Source: a virus (taxonomy: Duplodnaviria > Heunggongvirae > Uroviricota > Caudoviricetes). From it: a stretch of DNA of 14,096 nt. The notes under the pieces are model-generated. The model saw nothing but the letters and a program-made list of their open reading frames with translations, was not told the origin of the DNA and did not search any database. Shown here in pieces: positions 1,532-11,320 of the stretch. A program made the position numbers and the translations under genes. The stretch is from the IMG/VR virus record IMGVR_UViG_2563366951_000003; one strand, given 5' to 3'. Every line of letters starts with the position of its first letter. The stretch's first letter is position 1.

Positions 1532-1741
1532 TTAATTTGAATACAATGCAATTCTCGAGGACTGAAGTTTCTCGCAATTAAAATTTATCAATTTTACTTT
1601 CTGCTCTCTGGAAACGCCTGCTTCTTTTTTACCTGAGAGCATTTTTTCGCATTCTGATTTCGTTAGTTTAGATTTTGAATATCTTGTCCAGTTAGTAGGA
1701 GTGCCACCTTCCTTTTCAATAGTGGCGGTAATTTTATACAT
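1532..1741 (-). CDS. rcbA: RcbA/YdaC small protein (69 aa)
   Basis: ORF with GGAGG 6 nt upstream of the ATG at 1741. Translation MYKITATIEKEGG... matches remembered YdaC. Its start overlaps the ralR 3' end by 8 nt. Confidence 0.8.
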   Translation of the reverse strand: MYKITATIEKEGGTPTNWTRYSKSKLTKSECEKMLSGKKEAGVSREQKVKLINFNCEKLQSSRIALYSN

Positions 1742-2794: not shown

Positions 2795-5387
2795 TTGCAT
2801 ATTCCTTAGCCCAGCGGGGCAGTGATAATGTCTTAATAGCTGGCCATTCATCGGTATTCAGGCAGTCAGACAGGGTTCGCAGATTGCGGTGATATTCCTG
2901 TTGACCTGCCAGTTTTGCTTCTTCGCCCATCATGAAAATTTCAACCGGATAACGTCCGCATTCAATAGTTGTGCTGGCAACCAGAAAAACGAAAGTTGGC
3001 TGCACTCCAAACTGTGCTTCATAACCGTCACTGTAGAATGCATCCTGAACGTGATAGCGGTAGTCGTAATAAGCGGTTTTGAATCGTTGAATATCCGCCG
3101 TAGTTTTCACGTCCATGATCCAGTGAAATTCAGGGATAATTTTGTCCGGACGGCACCGACACAAAATTCCTGTTTCAGGATCTTCCCAGTAAATTGATGA
3201 TTCAGCGTGTCCGGCGCTTTCAACAAGCCATTGCCCCAGCGGCAAAGCCATAACGCTTTGATACATGAGTTCAATTTTCCGGCCTTCTTCCGCAGTGATA
3301 ACCGTTTTTCCTGTGCTTGCGCATTCCATCAGAAACGCTTTCTCTTCTTCTTTTCCGGCGTTTGTACGGCGGTTAAATTCAGGTGCTACGATAAAGCGGT
3401 TACTGAATTCTTCCGGTTCAAGTACCCGGCAGTGGAAAGCAGTTCCTAAATCGAGCGTTTTTGTCTTTGTGGTGTCCACGGGGGCATTTTTACGCCACAA
3501 ATATAGTGCCGGAGTATCAGCAATGTCATCGAGCTGAGACTTACTGATACCGGGACCCGCGTGGTAATTCTCATTCGAAATTCCGTAATAAATACCTGGC
3601 TCTATGTCTTCTACGATTACGGGATCTGCGACTTCGCCAGTTTCATCACTGCAATCGCGATGCGGATCGCTGCCAGCATTCTCATTGTGCGGATGTTCAG
3701 CGCCTTCCATTTCCTCCGGATCATTTTCCTTAGCTTCAACCTGACTCTCTTCATCGAATGTTTCCTGGTATGTTGCGTCGCCCATCACCGCACCACAGTC
3801 AGGGCAGTTATCCCCGCCAGTCTGGCCGCAGGCATTGCAGGCTATTTCCGGTTCCTGTTGCACTACTGGCTCAGGTTGATTCATATCTGGGCTGGTTTTT
3901 TCCGTTTCTGGCTGGTTCTGGTACACACAATCGCGAGTCTGGATCCCCTTTACCCATTTCGGATCGTTCGGGTCGCTAATTCCGTCAACAAATTCACCAC
4001 GTGATGCAGCAAGCAATTTATCGTCATCGACAGGATTTTTTGATGGAATGTTTTTCCGGGCTTCATGGAGTTCTGCCCGCAGTTCCTGATATTTCGCATC
4101 AACAGAATTTACCTGTGACTGAGCATCCAGCGGCTGCGTGTCCTGATGATGTTCAGTTGCGTCCGGTTCCATTGTTTCAGCCTCTCCCTGTTCAACTGCC
4201 GTTGTTCCAGATGGTTGCGGTTTTTCTTCATCATCCTGTTTTCCTTCTTCTGTTACTCGCTGCGGCATCGGGGCAGAGGAGCGACCGCAGGCAATATCCA
4301 CGATTTCCGGATCAGGGTTGGCATGATCGGTTTCAGTCAGTACTTTGTTCAGATATTCAGTGACGTGCGCGGGGATGACCTCGATCCCAATTGGTGCTTC
4401 TTTTACGGACGCAACCACGATGGCGCGGGAATAATCCAGCCCGCCAGGCATGGTGATGAATTTGTCGCGGAAAACAGAAAAGGGCGGTTTATTTTCAGCG
4501 ATAATTTCCTCAATGCGTTTAGCGTGTGCCGGATGAAGGTTATAGATGTCCAGATCCATTGAACGGGCCAGTACGCCAGTGGCTACGTCGCGCGCCAGTG
4601 ACGTCAGATCGTGTACGAAACCTTCGCCGCGATCGGTGAGGTTTCCGCCGCCAGCATTAGCACCGGAAGCCGTGCGAGTGATGTGTGAAACACGATTACC
4701 CTTCATCCACTCTTTTGTCAGCAGTCCTCGATCGGTGTAGTCAGCGTTCAGGTATGCTTCGAAAAAAGCAGTTATCAGTCCCAGGTTTGAATTACCAGGA
4801 TTAGGGAAAACTTTGTCAGTGTCACGAACCAGTTTGTGGAGTTCGCGAATTTCCAGCGGGTCGAGCAGGCTGGTTTTGTGGGAAACAGCCAGGGCAGTAA
4901 CAGCCGGTAGTTCTTCAGCCCGAGCAATGTGTAATGCCTGGAGTCCGTCGCGTGAAACGTGCGTTACCGGTTTTTCGCTGCCGTGTTGAGCAAGCCAACG
5001 AATGGGCAGTTCCTGGCCAGAAATTGGGAGTAGCATATTCTCCTCAATCTCAGTCATGTCTTCGCCGTTGACGTTGGTATTGCCTTGATAGTGAGCGTTG
5101 TCTGGTGCTGCTCCCGGTTTTAGTTCCCATGTCATGGAGTCTTTGCTGAGTTGATAGCGTTCACTCCAGGTAAAATCGATCTCACCTTCAGCGGGCAGGT
5201 CATTAACGACAGGAAAATTCGTGGCAACAGCTTTAAAATAGCTGCTCAGTTTTTTACCTGACTTAACGATCAGGTAGTCCAGAGTGGCACAGGTCGATTC
5301 AAAATCGTTGCTTGCCCACAGGACGACGTCAGGTTCACTGGATGATTTTTTCGCTTTCCGTAACAGGAAGAGTGGTTTTGTGCTCAT
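2787..5387 (-). CDS. recE: RecE exonuclease VIII (866 aa)
   Basis: 866-aa ORF, the same length as K-12 RecE. The N-terminal two-thirds is acidic and low-complexity with a CxxC-x7-CxxC motif; the C-terminal third corresponds to the nuclease domain. Directly followed by recT. Confidence 0.93.
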
Positions 5388-5458
5388 TGTTTTTTAACCT
5401 CAACTCAGATTAAAATTCGTTTTGTTCAGTGAATGATCTTGCCGGATACACACTGTTC

Positions 5459-5483
5459 ATAGCCTGCGCCATACGCAGGCTAT
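5459..5483. other. Perfect 10-bp inverted repeat (ATAGCCTGCG-5 nt-CGCAGGCTAT) in the racC-recE intercistronic region
   Basis: Read directly. On the plus strand it is followed by TTTCTTTC, so it is terminator-like in the antisense orientation relative to recE. It sits 6 nt downstream of the racC stop. Confidence 0.4.
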
Positions 5484-5488
5484 TTCTT

Positions 5489-5764
5489 TCAGATTTCACC
5501 TTTTAATTTCATTGCAATTAGAGTTGCCAGAAATTCGGCTTTTTTTTCTGCGGGCAGATTCTTTCCGATATGCACCAGGCACATTTTTTTGACACCTTCA
5601 TCAAGTGTTTTTACGTTGCCTGATGGACCATCGATATCAACCACAGTGAATGGGGTTTCTTTATTTTCTGTTTTAATTACGTAGCCAATGCGCTTTCCTT
5701 CCAGATTCACCTCGTGAACAATGTCATCGGTAGTTACAACAGTGGCTTCATAATTGGTAATCAT
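5489..5764 (-). CDS. racC: RacC small protein of unknown function (91 aa)
   Basis: ATG at 5764 is preceded by AAGGAG. Translation MITNYEATVVTTDD... matches remembered RacC. The tracked ORF has a 16-codon upstream extension. Confidence 0.8.
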   Translation of the reverse strand: MITNYEATVVTTDDIVHEVNLEGKRIGYVIKTENKETPFTVVDIDGPSGNVKTLDEGVKKMCLVHIGKNLPAEKKAEFLATLIAMKLKGEI

Positions 5765-5838
5765 GTTTTTCTCCTTAATTAAGGTTGAGCGAATACCTGC
5801 CATTTCTGGCATAAATTCAGTTTCGAATAGTCAATTAA

Positions 5839-6009
5839 TTAAAGTTCATGTGCCATCTGGTCTTTTTCGGCACAAGCTTCACTGCAATATTTTCTCGGTT
5901 CGTCTTTTGATAAAATCCCGTGCATGAAGTGAAGCATTCTTTCAATAGCTTTGCTTTCTTCAACGTCTTTTTTGCAAAGGTGGTAAGCACATTTTATTTT
6001 CTTAGTCAT
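5839..6009 (-). CDS. ydaE: YdaE small Cys-rich protein (56 aa), putative zinc-binding
   Basis: Not in the ORF track (under 60 aa); translated by hand as [56 protein letters not shown]. Has Cx4C ... Cx3C. Its start ATG overlaps the kilR stop by 1 nt (TGATG). Confidence 0.75.
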   Translation of the reverse strand: MTKKIKCAYHLCKKDVEESKAIERMLHFMHGILSKDEPRKYCSEACAEKDQMAHEL

Positions 6010-6230
6010 CACCATGACTCCGCCTTTACAGGTAAACCATCACGACCGAGGAAGACTTTAATCATGCGGTCAGTAATGCATGTTTTTGTGGTCAGGTTAC
6101 GAATATATAGTTTTCGCTTTTTAATATTGTTTGCCGAGGCAATATATGTCCGGCCTTCATGAAGAACATAATCGCCAGGAGTCACACACTGACGTGGTAT
6201 TTCATCAGTTCCGAAGTGATGTGCAATCAT
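6009..6230 (-). CDS. kilR: KilR cell-division (FtsZ) inhibitor (73 aa)
   Basis: ATG at 6230 is preceded by GGAGA. Translation [15 protein letters not shown]... matches remembered KilR. First gene of the leftward early cluster. Confidence 0.85.
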
Positions 6231-6671
6231 AATTATCTCCATTTTTACAAATGAACTTTGTTGATGCGGTGCCTGGTGCCTCCAGGTGACTGCAACCAGT
6301 TAACAATTACAGTCGGCTTTCCCACCCAAACCAATAAGGACTAACATGACTTTTAACTGTGCCACGTGCGCTTAGCCGCATTCACCGCATCACAAAATTC
6401 ACTTTAAAAAGGGCGGACATCAGCCGAACTTCAAGAAAAAAACTGATGCCGCCAGGACTACACACAGCAATGTCGTTATTTACAACCGGAGGCGCACTCC
6501 CACCATTTAAATTTAACAGACAAGACCGACTCTTTATGGATATCGGAAATGCGCCTTCGTGTTGTGCCCGGTTTTATTTCACCACCTCCGGGCTTCGGTG
6601 GTCTCGGCTATACCCCTACAGCGAGAGCTTGTGTTAACATTTCAATACCCTTACAGTTGAGAGTTATTGAT

Positions 6672-7160
6672 ATGTTGGATGTATTTACTCCATTGTTGAA
6701 ACTTTTTGCTAACGAGCCACTCGAAAGACTTATGTATACGATTATCATTTTTGGTCTCACTCTCTGGCTGATACCGAAAGAGTTTACTGTCGCATTCAAT
6801 GCTTATACTGAAATACCTTGGCTCTTTCAGATTATCGTTTTTGCCTTTTCTTTCGTGGTCGCCATTTCCTTCTCAAGATTGCGAGCACATATTCAAAAGC
6901 ATTATTCATTACTACCAGAGCAACGAGTATTGCTTCGTTTATCTGAGAAAGAAATCGCTGTATTTAAAGATTTCCTTAAAACAGGAAATCTTATTATCAC
7001 TTCTCCTTGCCGTAACCCGGTTATGAAAAAATTAGAACGGAAGGGCATCATTCAACATCAGAGTGATAGCGCAAACTGTTCTTATTATCTCGTCACCGAA
7101 AAATACTCCCATTTTATGAAGTTATTCTGGAACAGCAGGAGTAGACGTTTTAATCGTTAG
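6672..7160 (+). CDS. sieB: SieB superinfection-exclusion membrane protein (162 aa)
   Basis: Translation from MLDVFTPLLKLFANEPLERLMYTIIIFGLTLWLI... has two hydrophobic helices and matches remembered SieB. The tracked 203-aa ORF has a 41-codon N-terminal extension without support. Confidence 0.85.
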   Translation: MLDVFTPLLKLFANEPLERLMYTIIIFGLTLWLIPKEFTVAFNAYTEIPWLFQIIVFAFSFVVAISFSRLRAHIQKHYSLLPEQRVLLRLSEKEIAVFKDFLKTGNLIITSPCRNPVMKKLERKGIIQHQSDSANCSYYLVTEKYSHFMKLFWNSRSRRFNR

Positions 7161-7321
7161 CTTACTGTGTGCTTCTCCAACCATCGGCGCGCACCAGTTT
7201 CGGTTTTAAATGTTTTGCTTTTGGTATACGTCATGGCAGTGAACGTTCCATCCTGGTTGGGGAACACGCCGCACACCAGGGATTCGTTGTTGCCGAGGTC
7301 GATTTTTTGCATTTTGCGAAT

Positions 7322-7456
7322 CTCACATCTTGTTGCTACGTATAGCGACTTCTGCCTGCCAGAGATCCCAGTCGTTGCTGCGTAAAGCCTGCACAGCCTG
7401 GTTGTAAGTGATACCGCAACAATCCATCAAATACTGAACTACTTCGTAATGCACCA
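7322..7456 (-). CDS. ydaG: YdaG small protein (44 aa), function unknown
   Basis: Not in the ORF track; translated by hand as MVHYEVVQYLMDCCGITYNQAVQALRSNDWDLWQAEVAIRSNKM. Matches remembered Rac YdaG. Confidence 0.65.
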
Positions 7457-7489
7457 TCTTATCTCTCCCCTTAACGCCGGGTGGCGGAA

Positions 7490-7645
7490 CTAACTGCTGC
7501 ACTGCAAAATTTGAATCCCGCCGTCATGTTCATACGCCTCGGGCTGGCTACTTAACCCCTTACCACTGCCTGGTAACTCGAAGTATTGCCCTGCGTTCTG
7601 TGGGGCGGGGTGGGTTGGTAGGTATATAATGTACTTTGTGTTCAT
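7490..7645 (-). CDS. ydaF: YdaF small protein (51 aa), function unknown
   Basis: Translation MNTKYIIYLPTHPAPQNAGQYFELPGSGKG... matches remembered YdaF. An adjacent in-frame ATG (7646-7648) is an alternative start. Confidence 0.65.
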   Translation of the reverse strand: MNTKYIIYLPTHPAPQNAGQYFELPGSGKGLSSQPEAYEHDGGIQILQCSS

Positions 7646-7672
7646 CATTGTAAAGTACTTTAAGTACATTTT
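7624..7672. promoter_or_regulatory. Candidate left operator/promoter region between racR and ydaF
   Basis: Contains TATATAAT, the heptamer ATGTACT at 7629-7635 (plus) and 7663-7669 (minus), the perfect palindrome TAAAGTACTTTA at 7651-7662, and TACATTTTATGTA. The same heptamer recurs in the racR/ydaS intergenic region. Confidence 0.45.
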
Positions 7673-7744
7673 ATGTATAAAAAAATGAGACGGGATAAAG
7701 TGAAGCACAAACCCGGAGGGGGACGCTACCGGATTTATGCTGAT

Positions 7745-8164
7745 TTAAGAGGCTTTTTGTTTTTTCTTTCGTGCTAACTCTTCGTAAATTGCATTGTACT
7801 TCTGTTTTTTCTCCTCAAGAGTTTTTAAAAGTTCATCTGTCTCACTGTCAGGGAGCTCGTCCAGAAGGTCAATGATGATTTTTTGTCTTGGATTTAACTC
7901 CTGATAGAAACGTATCTGTCCACTTTCTTCTGTATCCTCTCCCAAAAGATAGGTTGGTGTTGTTCCAATGAGTGTTGCTAATTCCCTTAATTTCTCTCGG
8001 CGAGGAATTGTTTCACCATTAAACCATTTGCTAACCGCTTTTGGTGTTAATTTCATTCGACGGGCAATTTCTGCCTGCCTTCCATGTTGTTCATAACCAG
8101 CGTTTTCACAGGCTAGCGCAAGCCTACTGGCGAACTCTTTACGCGCTTTATCTTCATGAACCAT
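7745..8164 (-). CDS. racR: RacR, cI-like HTH (XRE-family) prophage repressor (139 aa from the first ATG)
   Basis: Helix-turn-helix segment QAEIARRMKLTPKAVSKWFNGETIP. Divergent from ydaS-ydaT. An in-frame stop lies 19 codons upstream of the ATG, so the protein cannot be much longer in this sequence. Confidence 0.85.
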   Translation of the reverse strand: MVHEDKARKEFASRLALACENAGYEQHGRQAEIARRMKLTPKAVSKWFNGETIPRREKLRELATLIGTTPTYLLGEDTEESGQIRFYQELNPRQKIIIDLLDELPDSETDELLKTLEEKKQKYNAIYEELARKKKQKAS

Positions 8165-8243
8165 AAGTTCAATGATATTCGCTCTTGAATGTACTGTCAG
8201 TTCTGTTATGGCATGTACTCAAAGTTCACATTGTGAGGATGAT
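8165..8243. promoter_or_regulatory. Divergent racR / ydaS promoter-operator region (OR-like)
   Basis: 79-bp gap between the divergent starts. ATGTACT direct repeats at 8189-8195 and 8213-8219, plus the small palindrome ACTGTCAGT. Position equals lambda OR between cI and cro. Confidence 0.5.
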
Positions 8244-8498
8244 ATGAACCAGAAAACACTTGAAGATGTAATCAAAACTGTTCGCGTTTCTGTTGTGGCC
8301 GACGTTTGTGGTGTCAGCCAAAGAGCAATCTACAAATGGATGGATAACGGAAAATTGCCTCGCACAGAATATACCGGCGAAACAAATTACGCTGAAAAAA
8401 TCGCTCATGCATCAAACGGATTATTTTCTGCCGATGCAATTTTAACTATTGGCAGAAATAAAACTACTACGAAAAAGCTGATGGGAGTTGATTCATGA
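8244..8498 (+). CDS. ydaS: YdaS, Cro-like HTH protein (84 aa from the SD-preceded ATG)
   Basis: HTH segment VADVCGVSQRAIYKWMDNGKLP. GAGGA precedes the ATG at 8244. In-frame ATGs at 8208 and 8172 are alternative starts but lack an SD. Stop overlaps the ydaT start (ATGA). Confidence 0.8.
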   Translation: MNQKTLEDVIKTVRVSVVADVCGVSQRAIYKWMDNGKLPRTEYTGETNYAEKIAHASNGLFSADAILTIGRNKTTTKKLMGVDS

Positions 8499-8917
8499 AA
8501 ATCAAGCATGAGCACATCGAATCAGTGTTGTTAGCCCTGGCAGCCGAAAAAGGGCAGGCGTGGGTCGCTAACGCAATTACTGAAGAATATCTGCGCCAGG
8601 GGGGCGGCGAATTGCCCCTGGTACCAGGCAAGGACTGGAACAATCAGCAGAATATCTATCATCGTTGGTTGAAAGGTGAAACGAATGCGCAAAGGGAAAA
8701 AATTCAGAAACTGATCCCTGCGGTTCTGGCAATTCTTCCTCGCGAGCTGCGTCACCGACTCTGCATCTTCGATACCCTGGAACGCCGTGCATTACTGGCG
8801 GCACAGGATGCACTGAGTACGGCAATTGATGCGCATGATGATGCAGTCCAGGCCGTTTACCGTAAAGCACATTTCAGCGGCGGCGGTTCTCCTAGCGATT
8901 CTGTCGTAGTGCATTGA
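8495..8917 (+). CDS. ydaT: YdaT, toxic protein of the RacR-controlled module (140 aa)
   Basis: 140-aa ORF translationally coupled to ydaS by a 4-nt overlap. Matches remembered YdaT. Confidence 0.85.
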   Translation: MKIKHEHIESVLLALAAEKGQAWVANAITEEYLRQGGGELPLVPGKDWNNQQNIYHRWLKGETNAQREKIQKLIPAVLAILPRELRHRLCIFDTLERRALLAAQDALSTAIDAHDDAVQAVYRKAHFSGGGSPSDSVVVH

Positions 8918-8994: not shown

Positions 8995-9783
8995 ATGGCT
9001 TCAAACTGGATAAAGCTCGAAGTTATTACGCCGGATAAGCCGGAAATATTCAGGCTTGCTGAGATTCTGAATATTGATCCAGATGCCGCATTAGGGAAAG
9101 TCATTCGCTTCTGGGCATGGGCGGATCAACAAATGATAGACGGTAACGCAGAGTGTAACGCTCGCGGCGTTACAAAAAGTGCAATAGATCGCATCACTTT
9201 TATGGCTGGTTTTGCTGATGCGTTAATTCAGGTTGGATGGCTGGTCGAAACTAATGGTGTGTTGTCGCTTCCTAACTTTGAGCGCCATAACGGGAAAAGC
9301 TCTAAAAAACGGGCGGTTACAAACGAGAGAGTAACAAAAATACGAGAACTGAAACGAAAAGGTAACGCTGCCAGCGTTACAAAAACGGATCAAAAAGCGT
9401 TACCAGAGGAAGAGAAAGAGGAAGATATAAATACTTATCTCCCCCTAAATCCCCCTCGCCAAAAACGAGCGTCTAAAAAATTCGAACCGGAGGCTATCGA
9501 GCTGCCTGACTGGTTGCCGGAAACACTCTGGCATGAGTGGGTTCAGTTCAGGCAGGCATTGCGAAAACCGATTCGAACGGAGCAGGGCGCTAACGGGGCG
9601 ATACGGGAGCTGGAAAAATTCCGCCAGCAGGGTTTTTCACCTGAGCAGGTGATTCGACACAGCATCGCCAATGAATACCAGGGCTTGTTCGCGCCAAAAG
9701 GTGTTCGACCTGAGACGTTACTCCGACAGGTTAACACCGTCTCGTTACCGGATAGTGCGATCCCGCCAGGCTTCAGGGGGTAA
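8995..9783 (+). CDS. ydaU: YdaU, putative replication-initiation (O-like) protein (262 aa from ATG)
   Basis: AGGTG Shine-Dalgarno 8 nt upstream of the ATG. Gene sits directly before the DnaC-like ydaV and contains multiple GTAACG palindromic repeats, as lambda O contains its ori iterons. In-frame GTG (8986) or TTG (8914) starts are possible. Confidence 0.8.
   Translation: MASNWIKLEVITPDKPEIFRLAEILNIDPDAALGKVIRFWAWADQQMIDGNAECNARGVTKSAIDRITFMAGFADALIQVGWLVETNGVLSLPNFERHNGKSSKKRAVTNERVTKIRELKRKGNAASVTKTDQKALPEEEKEEDINTYLPLNPPRQKRASKKFEPEAIELPDWLPETLWHEWVQFRQALRKPIRTEQGANGAIRELEKFRQQGFSPEQVIRHSIANEYQGLFAPKGVRPETLLRQVNTVSLPDSAIPPGFRG
9143..9174. repeat. GTAACGC half-site plus palindrome TGTAACGC-TCGCG-GCGTTACA inside ydaU
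   Basis: Read directly: half-site at 9143-9149, palindrome with 8-bp arms at 9154-9174. Confidence 0.75.
9316..9380. repeat. Degenerate GTTAC/GTAAC inverted pair (9316-9335) and palindrome GTAACGCT-GCC-AGCGTTAC (9362-9380) in an A-rich stretch of ydaU; candidate origin iterons
   Basis: Read directly. About eleven GTAACG half-sites cluster between 8960 and 9740. The arrangement resembles lambda ori iterons inside gene O. Confidence 0.6.
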
Positions 9784-9789
9784 CTGACC

Positions 9790-10536
9790 ATGAAAAATAT
9801 TGCGGCAGGCGGCATTCTTGAACGTATCCGCAGACTGGCCCCGCCACATGTAACCGCCCCATTCAAAACGGTAGCGGAGTGGCGCGAGTGGCAACTTTCC
9901 GAAGGCCAGAAACGTTGTGAGGAGATCAACCGTCAGAATCGTCAGTTGCGGGTGGAAAAAATTCTGAATCGCTCTGGCATCCAGCCATTGCACCGCAAAT
10001 GCTCGTTTTCGAATTACCAGGTGCAGAACGAAGGGCAGCGATACGCGTTGAGTCAGGCGAAATCCATCGCTGATGAACTGATGACCGGGTGTACAAATTT
10101 TGCGTTCAGCGGAAAACCTGGTACCGGAAAAAACCATCTGGCGGCGGCTATCGGGAATCGCCTGCTGAAAGATGGCCAGACAGTGATTGTGGTTACCGTG
10201 GCTGATGTCATGAGTGCCCTACACGCCAGCTATGACGACGGGCAATCAGGCGAAAAATTTTTGCGGGAACTGTGCCAAGTGGATCTGCTGGTTCTTGATG
10301 AAATTGGCATTCAGCGCGAGACAAAAAACGAGCAGGTGGTGCTGCACCAGATTGTTGATCGCCGGACAGCGTCGATGCGCAGCGTGGGGATGCTGACAAA
10401 CCTGAATTATGAGGCCATGAAAACATTGCTCGGCGAGAGGATTATGGATCGCATGACCATGAACGGCGGGCGATGGGTGAATTTTAACTGGGAGAGCTGG
10501 CGTCCGAATGTCGTCCAGCCAGGAATTGCGAAGTAA
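9790..10536 (+). CDS. ydaV: YdaV, DnaC-like AAA+ helicase-loader replication protein (248 aa)
   Basis: Walker [11 protein letters not shown] and Walker B LLVLDEIG motifs. Position is equivalent to lambda P/DnaC. Length matches remembered YdaV. Confidence 0.9.
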
Positions 10537-10558: not shown

Positions 10559-11320
10559 ATGGAGACTGTTTTTGACGCACTGAAAGCAATGGGAAAAGCC
10601 ACATCCATAGAACTTGCTGCGCGACTTGATATCAGCCGTGAAGAAGTGCTGAACGAACTATGGGAACTGAAAAAGGCTGGTTTCGTTGATAAAAGCGCGT
10701 ACACCTGGCGTGTGGCTGATAACAACGTTCAGCAGGAACAGCCAGCGCCGGCAGAACTGCCGGAAGAAACTACCACGGCAACAGTCGCGAAAATTTCAGA
10801 GAGCGATTTAACTGCGACGATTGAACAACGTGGTCCACTAACTGCGGATGAACTGGCTACGTTGTTCGGTACCACATCCCGCAAAGTGGCTTCAACGCTG
10901 GCAATGGCAATCAGCAAAGCTCGTCTGATTCGCGTTAATCAGAACGGTAAATTTCGTTACTGCATGCCGGGCGGTAATTTACCAGCAGAGCCGAAAGCTG
11001 CATCGGTAGCGGAAACAGATGGTAAAGCCTTTCCTCAGCTAGCCGGTGTTGCGTTACCAGTACAGGAAGCTGCAACACAGGAAGATATTAAAACAGAAAC
11101 TGTGGCGGACATTGTGCAGTCGTTGCCATCGTTTACTGAAACGCAAGCGGATAACCTGATTTTACCATCGCTGCATATGGCAAACCGTGAACTGCGTCGG
11201 GCGAAAAATCATGTCCAGAAGTGGGAGCGAGTCTGCGCCGCGCTGCGGGAGCTGAACAAGCACCGGGATATTGTTCGACAGATTACTGATTCTTCCCGCC
11301 GTGTTGTATCGGAAAAGTGA
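10559..11320 (+). CDS. Uncharacterised prophage protein with winged-helix-like N-terminal region and basic/coiled-coil C-terminus (253 aa); possibly the intact counterpart of K-12 ydaW
   Basis: GGGAGA SD 8 nt before the ATG at 10559. The tracked ORF starts at 10508 inside ydaV without an SD. Two segments resemble winged-helix folds ([31 protein letters not shown] and [34 protein letters not shown]). Family assignment is from memory only. Confidence 0.7.

Follow-up and report, generated by a model that had tools for sequence, protein, structure and literature searches.

HK022-type operators on both sides of the repressor gene in the immunity region of a Rac-like lambdoid prophage

Results

Organization of the immunity region

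The window, i.e. the whole stretch of 14,096 bp analysed here, carries a repressor gene and a divergent cro-like gene, with ydaG-like and ydaF genes on the left and ydaT on the right (Table 1). The reading frames of the repressor, cro, and ydaT are intact. Comparison with the Rac prophage of K-12 revealed 99.8% identity over 4400–7620, where the homology ends, no DNA homology across 7621–8488, and renewed homology from 8489 on, with 92–93% identity over the aligned ydaT (8489–8915) and over 9410–10425. The block is swapped exactly between 7620 and 8489, so the left operators (OL) travel with the repressor, as in the classical imm regions. The YdaT-box, a site established by experiments on the YdaT proteins of Rac and of CP-933P (PMC11879457, PMC9986795), lies at the right edge of the replacement.

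Table 1 Features of the immunity region and its borders. Promoter scores are from a consensus scan, which in the region as a whole found 2 promoters against 1.8 expected and is thus not above chance.
Feature	Position	Strand	Description
ydaF (DUF1391)	7157–7312	-	Second gene of the leftward operon; Pfam DUF1391, E = 1.9e-28; likewise annotated as ydaF
ydaG-like small gene	7323–7454	-	First gene of the leftward operon; matches phrog_14709; annotated in L002 and L013
Non-coding leader	7466–7620	-	Conserved leader of the predicted leftward transcript; nearly invariant in 8 loci with at least 5 different immunity regions
PL-like promoter (predicted)	7626–7654	-	-35 TTTACA (7654–7649), 17-bp spacer, -10 CATTAT (7631–7626); score 9/12
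OL1 operator	7630–7644		TGTACTTTGTGTTCA; over -10 and spacer of the leftward promoter; aligns with HK022 oL TGTACTTAAAGTTCA
OL2 operator	7654–7668		AGTACTTTAAGTACA; adjoins the leftward -35; 24 bp from OL1; aligns with HK022 oL AGTACCAATAGTACA
OL3 (doubtful, degenerate)	7674–7688		TGTATAAAAAAATGA; positional equivalent of annotated HK75 oL3 GGTATAAAAAGCTCA
Immunity repressor, 139 aa	7745–8164	-	HK022-CI-like helix-turn-helix domain (about residues 1–75) and short all-helical C-terminal domain
OR3 operator	8157–8171		TGAACCATAAGTTCA; over the repressor start codon (8164–8162) and predicted transcript start; 0 mismatches to the consensus
PRM-like repressor promoter (predicted)	8172–8200	-	-35 CTGACA (8200–8195), 17-bp spacer, -10 TATCAT (8177–8172); score 10/12
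PR-like promoter (predicted)	8185–8212	+	-35 TTGAAT (8185–8190), 16-bp spacer, TG at 8204–8205, weak -10 TATGGC (8207–8212)
OR2 operator	8190–8204		TGTACTGTCAGTTCT; between PR -35 and -10, over the -35 of the repressor promoter; aligns with HK022 oR2 TGTACTATCAGTTCC
OR1 operator	8214–8228		TGTACTCAAAGTTCA; covers the site where PR is predicted to start; 24 bp from OR2; aligns with HK022 oR1; 0 mismatches to the consensus
Cro-like regulator, 84 aa	8244–8498	+	HK022 Cro homologue, 62% identical, E = 1e-34
YdaT-box	8488–8505		TTGATTCATGAAAATCAA; perfect TTGATT-N6-AATCAA; spans the ydaT start codon (8495)
ydaT, CII analogue	8495–8917	+	Pfam YdaT_toxin; 92.5% DNA identity to K-12 ydaT

The repressor and its divergent partner

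The two divergent genes had been named racR and ydaS in the first-pass annotation, and neither proved to be an orthologue of its K-12 namesake. The repressor matches K-12 RacR by BLASTP at 12 of 33 residues, in the helix-turn-helix region only, and the comparison of the Cro-like protein with YdaS gives E = 0.028, which is not meaningful. The K-12 RacR operators, (T/A)TAGGC-N3-GCCTA(T/A), are unlike those described below, and this pattern has chance-level matches only in the window and none in the intergenic regions. The missing DNA homology, the generic helix-turn-helix similarity, and the absence of RacR operators rule out an identification of the gene as K-12 racR.

A close counterpart among the compared systems is the immunity region of phages HK022 (GenBank X16093) and HK75, to whose cI–OR–cro segment positions 8004–8414 are about 70% identical at the DNA level. 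The repressor and HK022 CI share 46 of 99 residues by BLASTP (E = 9e-32), and the recognition helix reads TPKAVSKWFNG in the former and TPKAISKWFNG in the latter. In the family alignments, T40–N49 are invariant, except for V44, which differs in HK022 CI alone. The similarity holds for the DNA-binding domain; the HK022 cI frame has 235 codons (AA 1–208 according to the note in the record) and encodes an S24-type C-terminal domain, whereas the 139-aa repressor has none. Pfam searches of the repressor returned helix-turn-helix families only, with HTH_3 as the best, and the S24 peptidase domain, carried as PF00717 by the long relatives, was absent. The protein matches phrog_5736, and its AlphaFold model is all helical with a mean pLDDT of 83. 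To identify the C-terminal domain, the PDB was searched both by structure with Foldseek and by sequence at the level of chains, and the matches were to helix-turn-helix domains only.

Left and right operator sites

The heptamer ATGTACT occurs four times in the whole window, at 7629 (+), 7663 (-), 8189 (+), and 8213 (+), against a chance expectation of 1.11, and at least four copies within 620 bp were found in 0 of 2000 dinucleotide-preserving shuffles. These positions, two on each side of the repressor frame, are as the first-pass annotation had listed them, and no further copy exists in the window. As a definition of the full site the heptamer was wrong: it makes up only the left half of an operator that is 15 bp long and pseudo-palindromic, TGWAC-N5-GTWCA. 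The core pattern GTAC-N5-GTWC has five matches at four sites in the window, against 0.41 expected. Five clear operators were identified (OL1, OL2, OR3, OR2, and OR1), all with perfect half-sites, and the strict matches across the 14 kb are confined to 7630–7668 and 8157–8228. OR3, which is identical to HK022 oR3/oR1, had been overlooked because its left half is TGAAC and not TGTAC. No sixth operator was found near cro, and the sole other loose match in the window is at 10654.

Both clusters can be aligned, base by base, with the oL/pL and oR/pR annotated in HK022 and HK75. The comparison was extended to nine related loci, distributed over Escherichia, Citrobacter, Klebsiella, Providencia, and Salmonella, i.e. 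ten loci overall. Every one of the ten has two sites 24 bp apart downstream of the repressor gene, with OL1 at the same relative position, and three sites upstream, in which OR3 lies 33 bp from OR2 and a 24-bp interval follows. This two-plus-three layout is kept even where 1.3–2.2 kb of other genes lie between the repressor and OL, and the OL–OR distance ranges from 503 to 2235 bp among the loci. Conservation at OL is 0.99 for the half-sites, 0.59 for the centres, and about 0.5 for the flanks. Judged from these sequence comparisons, the ATGTACT repeats are real half-sites of the well-known HK022-type repressor binding sites.

Two further left-side candidates were rejected. The perfect palindrome TAAAGTACTTTA, which had been proposed as an additional site, does exist (7651–7662), but it is not a site of its own: it combines the leftward -35 (TGTAAA) with the spacer and left half-site of OL2. 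Its HK022 counterpart TGTAAAGTACCAAT is non-palindromic, and the palindrome is not conserved there. A third left operator has only the degenerate match designated OL3, whose right half-site is lost in the window (AATGA, compared with GTTCA/GCTCA).

Predicted promoters and the leftward leader

The outward-facing hexamers lie at the positions of HK022 pL and pR and are consensus matches only, with a weak PR -10. On the left, they sit where the -35 and -10 of HK022 pL are annotated, with a predicted transcript start at about 7619. The TGTAAA of the -35 region is invariant across the loci, except for one base in the Providencia locus. On the right, the hexamers align with those annotated for HK022 pR (-35 TTGACT, -10 CATAAT), and the -10 of the relatives is TATAGC or TATATT. 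The repressor ATG lies 7 nt past the -10 of the predicted PRM-like promoter; from this distance, and on the model of lambda cI and PaaR2 (PMC8630535), the repressor mRNA is predicted to be leaderless.

The leader ahead of ydaG was inspected for possible functions. It has no match in Rfam, even at E ≤ 1, its predicted fold is not significant (z-score -0.54), 0 of 35 pairs are compensatory in the covariation analysis, and no second copy occurs in the window. A put-like RNA was ruled out by the lack of similarity to putL/putR, and a small ORF in the leader (ATG at 7533) was rejected since it is not conserved.

Discussion

A putative lambda-like switch

Collectively, we read the window as a Rac-like lambdoid prophage with an HK022-type immunity block at 7621–8488, and estimate the probability of this reading as a whole, including the mechanism, at roughly 0.88. 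On this reading it would be an ordinary lambda-style switch, not a new kind of element. The OL/OR arrangement with one repressor and two promoters, suggested by the first-pass annotation, finds support in the positional homology to HK022/HK75, and so does its proposal of a leftward promoter feeding ydaG, ydaF, and possibly genes beyond, through the homology to HK022 pL.

We infer the working of the switch from sequence; this concerns operator binding by the 139-aa protein as well as the activity of the promoters, the cooperativity and looping, and the length of the leftward transcript. The repressor, as a dimer, would bind the 15-bp operators, and the HK022-like Cro would compete for the same sites. 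The OR3–OR2–OR1 array is predicted to overlap the rightward promoter for cro, ydaT, and the replication genes as well as the promoter of the repressor itself. Occupancy of OR1 and OR2 would occlude the rightward promoter, and the location of OR3 over the repressor start may allow negative autoregulation. The two left operators, 503 bp from the right cluster, would sandwich the leftward promoter, whose transcript would begin with the conserved leader, cover ydaG and ydaF, and perhaps run on into kilR-racC-recET-xis-int, which share this strand. With repressor at the left and right clusters, both early operons would be kept silent.

Alternative readings

The left sites may instead be auxiliary operators for looping or cooperativity only, with no functional promoter at 7626–7654 and with ydaG, ydaF, kilR, and recET driven from elsewhere. 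The modest score of the leftward promoter and the chance-level number of promoter hits in the region speak for this reading. We nevertheless hold it to be very unlikely, because the -35 TTTACA and the 17-bp spacing coincide in position with the pL annotated for HK022 and show conservation among the ten loci, the K-12/window homology junction coincides with the predicted leftward start, and K-12 Rac has an 11/12 leftward promoter at the equivalent place. Furthermore, loss of RacR derepresses the entire left arm of K-12 Rac (bioRxiv 10.64898/2026.09.06.749655; PMC6765115), and in CP-933P an analogous OL/PL has been shown experimentally, with PL933P both active and repressed (PMC8630535).

A second alternative, to which we give just as little weight, regards the operators as intact relics of a decayed prophage in which the switch no longer works in the present host, either because the repressor is not made or because the rightward promoter is defective. 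Rac-like elements are often cryptic. Two changes private to the window relative to O157:H7 and the phage relatives point in this direction, namely an A-to-G at 8210 that yields the TATGGC of the PR -10 and a G-to-A at 8239 in the ribosome-binding region of cro. Against it stand the intact frames of the repressor, cro, and ydaT, the perfect half-sites in all five operators, and the spread of the module, which is 99.7% identical in entries submitted as complete phage genomes and 97% identical in phage Tritos, and which 1047 of the 5426 complete E. coli genomes carry (about one in five, O157:H7 included). Finally, the view that the heptamers reflect chance or compositional similarity of AT-rich intergenic regions and bind no protein, for which the shortness of the motif might speak, is effectively refuted by the clustering absent from the shuffles, the excess of the 13- and 15-bp patterns far above chance, the exact positional homology to the HK022 operators, and the conservation of half-sites around variable centres.

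Comparison with known switches

The putative switch shares with HK022 and HK75 the operator family, the number and spacing of the sites, the OR3 over the repressor ATG, the positions of the promoter hexamers, and a homologous Cro. Unlike HK022, the block is set in a Rac-like backbone (recET, kilR), the CII function is assigned to YdaT with its YdaT-box, and the OL–OR distance is 503 bp instead of 775 bp. The window also lacks the OFR operator, putL/putR, and nun of HK022; no OFR-like far-right operator was found downstream of cro, and no similarity to HK75 putL/putR was detected. HK022 CI reportedly binds adjacent OR and OL operators cooperatively and loops between the clusters, as PMC8053113 relates at second hand from Carlson & Little 1993, the study also cited for operator binding by the HK022 repressor and Cro. 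By analogy with lambda CI, this cooperativity and looping would be mediated by the S24-type C-terminal domain. The C-terminal domain of the window repressor is different, so these properties of HK022 CI are not simply transferable.

Phage lambda likewise has its repressor gene between two operator clusters, each over an outward early promoter, which in the window is a predicted one. Its adjacent operators, too, lie about 24 bp apart when measured between their centres, and a third OR operator is located at the promoter of the repressor gene. The repressor mRNA of lambda is leaderless, as is likely for the window. The operator and repressor sequences are unrelated beyond the helix-turn-helix fold, however, and lambda has three OL sites whereas the window has two clear ones. 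The RecA-cleavable repressor domain and the N/nut system of lambda are missing from the window.

The gene order is the same in the RacR-YdaS-YdaT module of K-12 Rac (PMC5700373, PMC9638921, PMC11879457), which has the prophage backbone, YdaT, and the YdaT-box in common with the window, and in which one OR operator also overlaps the repressor ATG; its repressor and Cro analogue, however, are not orthologous to those of the window. In the lambdoid CP-933P prophage of O157:H7 (PMC8630535), the PaaR2-YdaS-YdaT module likewise combines a short helix-turn-helix repressor, a Cro analogue, YdaT, and two-sided operators, with an OL1–3 set that controls the repressible PL933P, to which we liken the left set of the window, and with the same conserved leader after PL. 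It differs in the repressor family and operator sequence, and the paaA2-parE2 toxin-antitoxin pair lies between its repressor and OL, where the window has no cargo. Qin DicA/DicC and other antirepressor-controlled short repressors without S24 (PMC10448788) are also of about 135–140 aa without a RecA-cleavable domain and reside in lambdoid cryptic prophages, and a leftward promoter there drives a ydfA/ydaF (DUF1391) operon that is preceded by the leader conserved in the window; repressor family and operators again differ from those of the window. Within the literature covered, our search found no report of a module of the window type in CP-933R or Rac-like prophages, nor of an OL site for RacR.

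Implications for Rac-like prophages

The regulatory architecture itself is textbook, and the main value of the analysis is a correction of annotation: the Rac-like prophage analysed here has a repressor other than RacR, and the operator results obtained with K-12 RacR are therefore not transferable to the many E. coli strains with HK022-type immunity, including O157:H7. Precise coordinates of the operators and predicted promoters are now given for a module that is widespread in E. coli. It is possible, though we consider it rather doubtful, that the common Rac-like module reads HK022-type operators through a repressor in which S24 has been exchanged for a short helical domain of the phrog_5736 type. 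If so, the prophage would not be directly SOS-inducible, and cross-immunity to phages of the HK022 family, or cross-repression by them, would be possible. The pairwise cooperativity at 24 bp and any looping over the 503 bp between OL and OR would then depend on a different, uncharacterised oligomerisation domain. Such a natural domain swap, with the same operators and DNA-binding domain and a different oligomerisation domain, could be used to probe the role of the C-terminal domain in cooperativity, looping, and inducibility.

Operator sites flanking the repressor gene

Four copies of the heptamer ATGTACT are present in the 14,096-bp window (7629, 8189 and 8213 on the plus strand and 7663 on the minus strand), exactly where the first-pass annotation had placed them, versus a chance expectation of 1.11 for the whole window. 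None of 2000 dinucleotide-preserving shuffles placed at least four copies within 620 bp, and the clustering is not due to chance. One pair lies on each side of the minus-strand repressor gene, and the palindrome noticed earlier is also present. Repeat analysis identified the heptamer as part of a longer unit, with 24 bp from start to start between the copies on each side. The core GTAC-N5-GTWC has five matches at four sites (0.41 expected), all within 7631-7667 and 8191-8227. The 15-bp pattern TGWACYNWWAGTWCA is matched at five sites, or 10 strand-matches against 1.58 expected, which form the left operators OL1 and OL2 and the right operators OR3, OR2 and OR1. The heptamers had been proposed as operators: the sites are real, but the unit is the 15-bp operator and the heptamer only a part of it. 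The left and right pairs stand as described, and OR3 had been missed because its left half is TGAAC. OR3 overlies the ATG (8164-8162) of the repressor gene. OL3 is degenerate in the window, in which no OFR operator, putL/putR or nun was found.

Features of the immunity region and its surroundings
Feature	Position	Strand	Details
OL1	7630-7644		15-bp pattern match
OL2	7654-7668		15-bp pattern match
OR3	8157-8171		15-bp pattern match; TGAACCATAAGTTCA; left half TGAAC
OR2	8190-8204		15-bp pattern match
OR1	8214-8228		15-bp pattern match
Palindrome	7651-7662		TAAAGTACTTTA
Repressor gene	7745-8164	-	139 aa
Repressor C-terminal module	7745-7939	-	64 residues
Cro-like gene	8244-8498	+	84 aa
Long cro form	8172-8498	+	108-aa extension of cro; crosses operator region
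ORF across OL	7490-7708	-	72 aa, GTG start; mechanical ORF list
Predicted leftward promoter	7654 to 7626	-	9/12; consensus scan, independent of HK022 alignment
Predicted repressor promoter	8200 to 8172	-	10/12; consensus scan, independent of HK022 alignment
Conserved leader	7466-7620	-	about 155 nt, non-coding
YdaT-box	8488-8505		TTGATTCATGAAAATCAA; perfect; across ydaT start codon
RalA antitoxin sRNA	1557-1735	+	Rfam RF02694, 219 bits; opposite ralR, like K-12 Rac

An HK022-type immunity region inside a Rac-like prophage

The window is a Rac-like lambdoid prophage with the gene order intR, xisR, ralR, recT, recE, racC, ydaE, kilR, sieB, ydaF, ydaG, repressor, cro-like gene, ydaT and replication genes. 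It is 99.8% identical to K-12 Rac up to 7620, and homology returns at 8489 with 92.5%; across 7621-8488 no DNA homology to K-12 Rac was detectable. The K-12 immunity region is thus not carried, and the names racR and ydaS, given earlier to the flanked gene and its divergent neighbor, do not hold. The 139-aa repressor was rejected as K-12 RacR, with which it shares only a 12/33 helix-turn-helix match, and the 84-aa protein was rejected as YdaS (E = 0.028, no match). RacR-type operators are absent from the window. Strain PA20 of O157:H7 carries this block at 99.4% identity, and its identity is 99.7% to three entries deposited as complete phage genomes and 97% to phage Tritos. Among 5426 complete E. 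coli genomes, 1047 contain 80% or more of window 7400-8500.

In a sensitive DNA search, the cI(N-terminus)-OR-cro segment of coliphages HK022 and HK75 matched window 8004-8414 at about 70% identity. The window operators align base for base on those annotated in the GenBank records of the two phages, from which the promoters were also taken. In HK022, the oL sequences are TGTACTTAAAGTTCA and AGTACCAATAGTACA, oR3 and oR1 are both TGAACCATAAGTTCA, and oR2 is TGTACTATCAGTTCC. HK022 Cro and the Cro-like protein share 62% identity. We conclude that an HK022-type immunity region sits here inside a Rac-like prophage; the papers searched included none on this particular module.

In the alignment, the pL hexamers are sandwiched by OL1 and OL2; window and HK022 share the -35 TTTACA, and the -10 is CATTAT in the window versus CATCAT in HK022. 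OR3, OR2 and OR1 share their register with the pR hexamers, of which the -35 is TTGAAT in the window versus TTGACT and the -10 is TATGGC versus CATAAT. Between the -10 of the predicted repressor promoter and the ATG lie 7 nt, so that a leaderless mRNA is predicted. The window PR -10 is weak, with A-to-G at 8210 relative to TATAGC of O157:H7 and phage relatives, and G-to-A at 8239 changes the cro ribosome-binding region from GAGGGTGAT to GAGGATGAT. Both are private differences from strain PA20 and phage vB_EcoS-666R9 in an otherwise identical OR region, and each could reduce rightward (lytic) expression. The long cro form is the one annotated in phage Tritos, and the start at 8244 is favored over 8172 by the HK022 alignment and by the ribosome-binding site.

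Conservation of the operator layout

For comparison, nine further loci were picked because they resemble the repressor or cro, without reference to the motif: E. coli 2012C-4502 (87% identity, dicB-type backbone), phage Tritos, HK022, HK75, Citrobacter phage Omnitron, Klebsiella phage 2 LV-2017, Providencia phage PSTNGR2lys and two Salmonella prophages with short repressors (62-65% identical). In all nine, the downstream side of the repressor gene has a pair of sites 24 bp apart and the upstream side has three, spaced by 33 and 24 bp. OR3 covers the start codon wherever the start was read (seven loci); in the two annotated long forms, from Citrobacter and Klebsiella, it covers an internal Met-Val that aligns with this start. 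The OL-to-OR distance is 503 bp in the window, 1319 bp in Salmonella, where a higBA pair is inserted, and 2235 bp in Providencia, so the left pair follows the repressor whatever sits between.

Conservation was calculated as the fraction of sequences with the majority base in eight non-redundant loci. It reaches 0.99 in the OL half-sites (5-bp centers 0.59, flanks about 0.5) and 0.95 in the OR half-sites (centers 0.84, spacers 0.76), a pattern of half-sites kept over centers and surroundings as would be expected of protein-binding sites. The left-side sites are conserved, and this layout, together with the HK022 alignment, supports the lambda-style OL/OR reading, which was right in substance.

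In the Salmonella enterica prophages, the higB-higA toxin-antitoxin pair (L010 3553-4220, L011 3588-4255) separates the repressor gene from the OL pair, in the position of rexAB in lambda and of paaA2-parE2 in CP-933P. The annotated repressor start of L011, upstream of the conserved ATG in OR3, is probably wrong.

Junctions, leader and the K-12 Rac parallel

The conserved leader, immediately downstream of the predicted leftward start, hardly varies among loci that differ in their downstream genes and carry at least five distinct immunity regions (HK022-like, RacR, PaaR2/CP-933P, another helix-turn-helix type and a LexA-family type). Of the 3767 query-matching E. coli genomes, the majority match this piece alone. 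The leader gave no Rfam match, significant fold, covariation, conserved ORF or putL/putR similarity. The homology junction 7620|7621 coincides with the predicted leftward start in both K-12 Rac and the window, and the replacement extends to the YdaT-box; both recombination junctions therefore sit at regulatory sites. YdaT is the CII analogue, and in K-12 its box activates a reverse repressor promoter (PMC11879457).

K-12 Rac follows the same operator logic with different sequences. For RacR, the published operator consensus is (T/A)TAGGC-N3-GCCTA(T/A). Three or four operators are described between racR and ydaS (PMC5700373, PMC9638921, PMC11879457), the only location given in the papers covered, and the RacR regulon is called uncharacterised (PMC9638921, PMC11014345). 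In the K-12 Rac record (L002), the consensus appears twice more, some 100-130 bp downstream of racR, as ATAGGTAATGCCTAA (3231-3245), which fits, and ATAGGCTATGCCTAA (3256-3270), a perfect match. Both overlap an 11/12 predicted leftward promoter (-35 TTGACA, -10 TATAGT) in 3228-3289, the position equivalent to window 7621-7690. RacR loss derepresses ydaG, kilR, ydaE, racC, recET, ralR, xisR and intR (bioRxiv 10.64898/2026.09.06.749655; PMC6765115). Judging from sequence, these sites may be an unreported OL/PL that explains the derepression of kilR and recET upon RacR depletion.

Proposed switch and the repressor

Beyond the sequence facts, we infer the following mechanism. A repressor dimer would bind the 15-bp operators, with OR1 and OR2 blocking the rightward promoter (cro, ydaT and replication genes), OL1 and OL2 blocking the leftward one, and OR3 over the repressor's own start providing negative autoregulation. 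The leftward transcript would carry the leader into ydaG and ydaF and could extend to kilR, racC, recET, xis and int, which share its strand. At these operators, Cro would compete with the repressor. A PL/OL set has been demonstrated for the analogous CP-933P switch (PMC8630535), and HK022 CI is reported to bind adjacent operators cooperatively and to loop OL to OR (PMC8053113).

Homology to the N-terminal domain of HK022 CI covers the first 75 or so repressor residues (46/99 identical, E = 9e-32), and the recognition helices are nearly identical (TPKAVSKWFNG versus TPKAISKWFNG). The S24 peptidase domain of HK022-type CI is missing: Pfam found only helix-turn-helix families, and PF00717-bearing relatives align only to the N-terminal 55-73% of the query. 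For the last 60 or so residues, AlphaFold (mean pLDDT 83) predicts three helices, of which the third is 33 residues long; this stretch belongs to phrog_5736, annotated as transcriptional regulator. PDB structure and sequence searches recognized the helix-turn-helix domain alone and no solved structure like the C-terminal module. The module is conserved and helical, and short forms are found in E. coli and Salmonella. Because the S24 domain is replaced, cooperativity, looping and the induction route are not transferable from HK022 CI; other short prophage repressors, such as DicA, are inactivated by antirepressors (PMC10448788). The element is a new representative of a well-known immunity-region type, of which the swapped repressor C-terminal domain is the sole non-trivial feature here.
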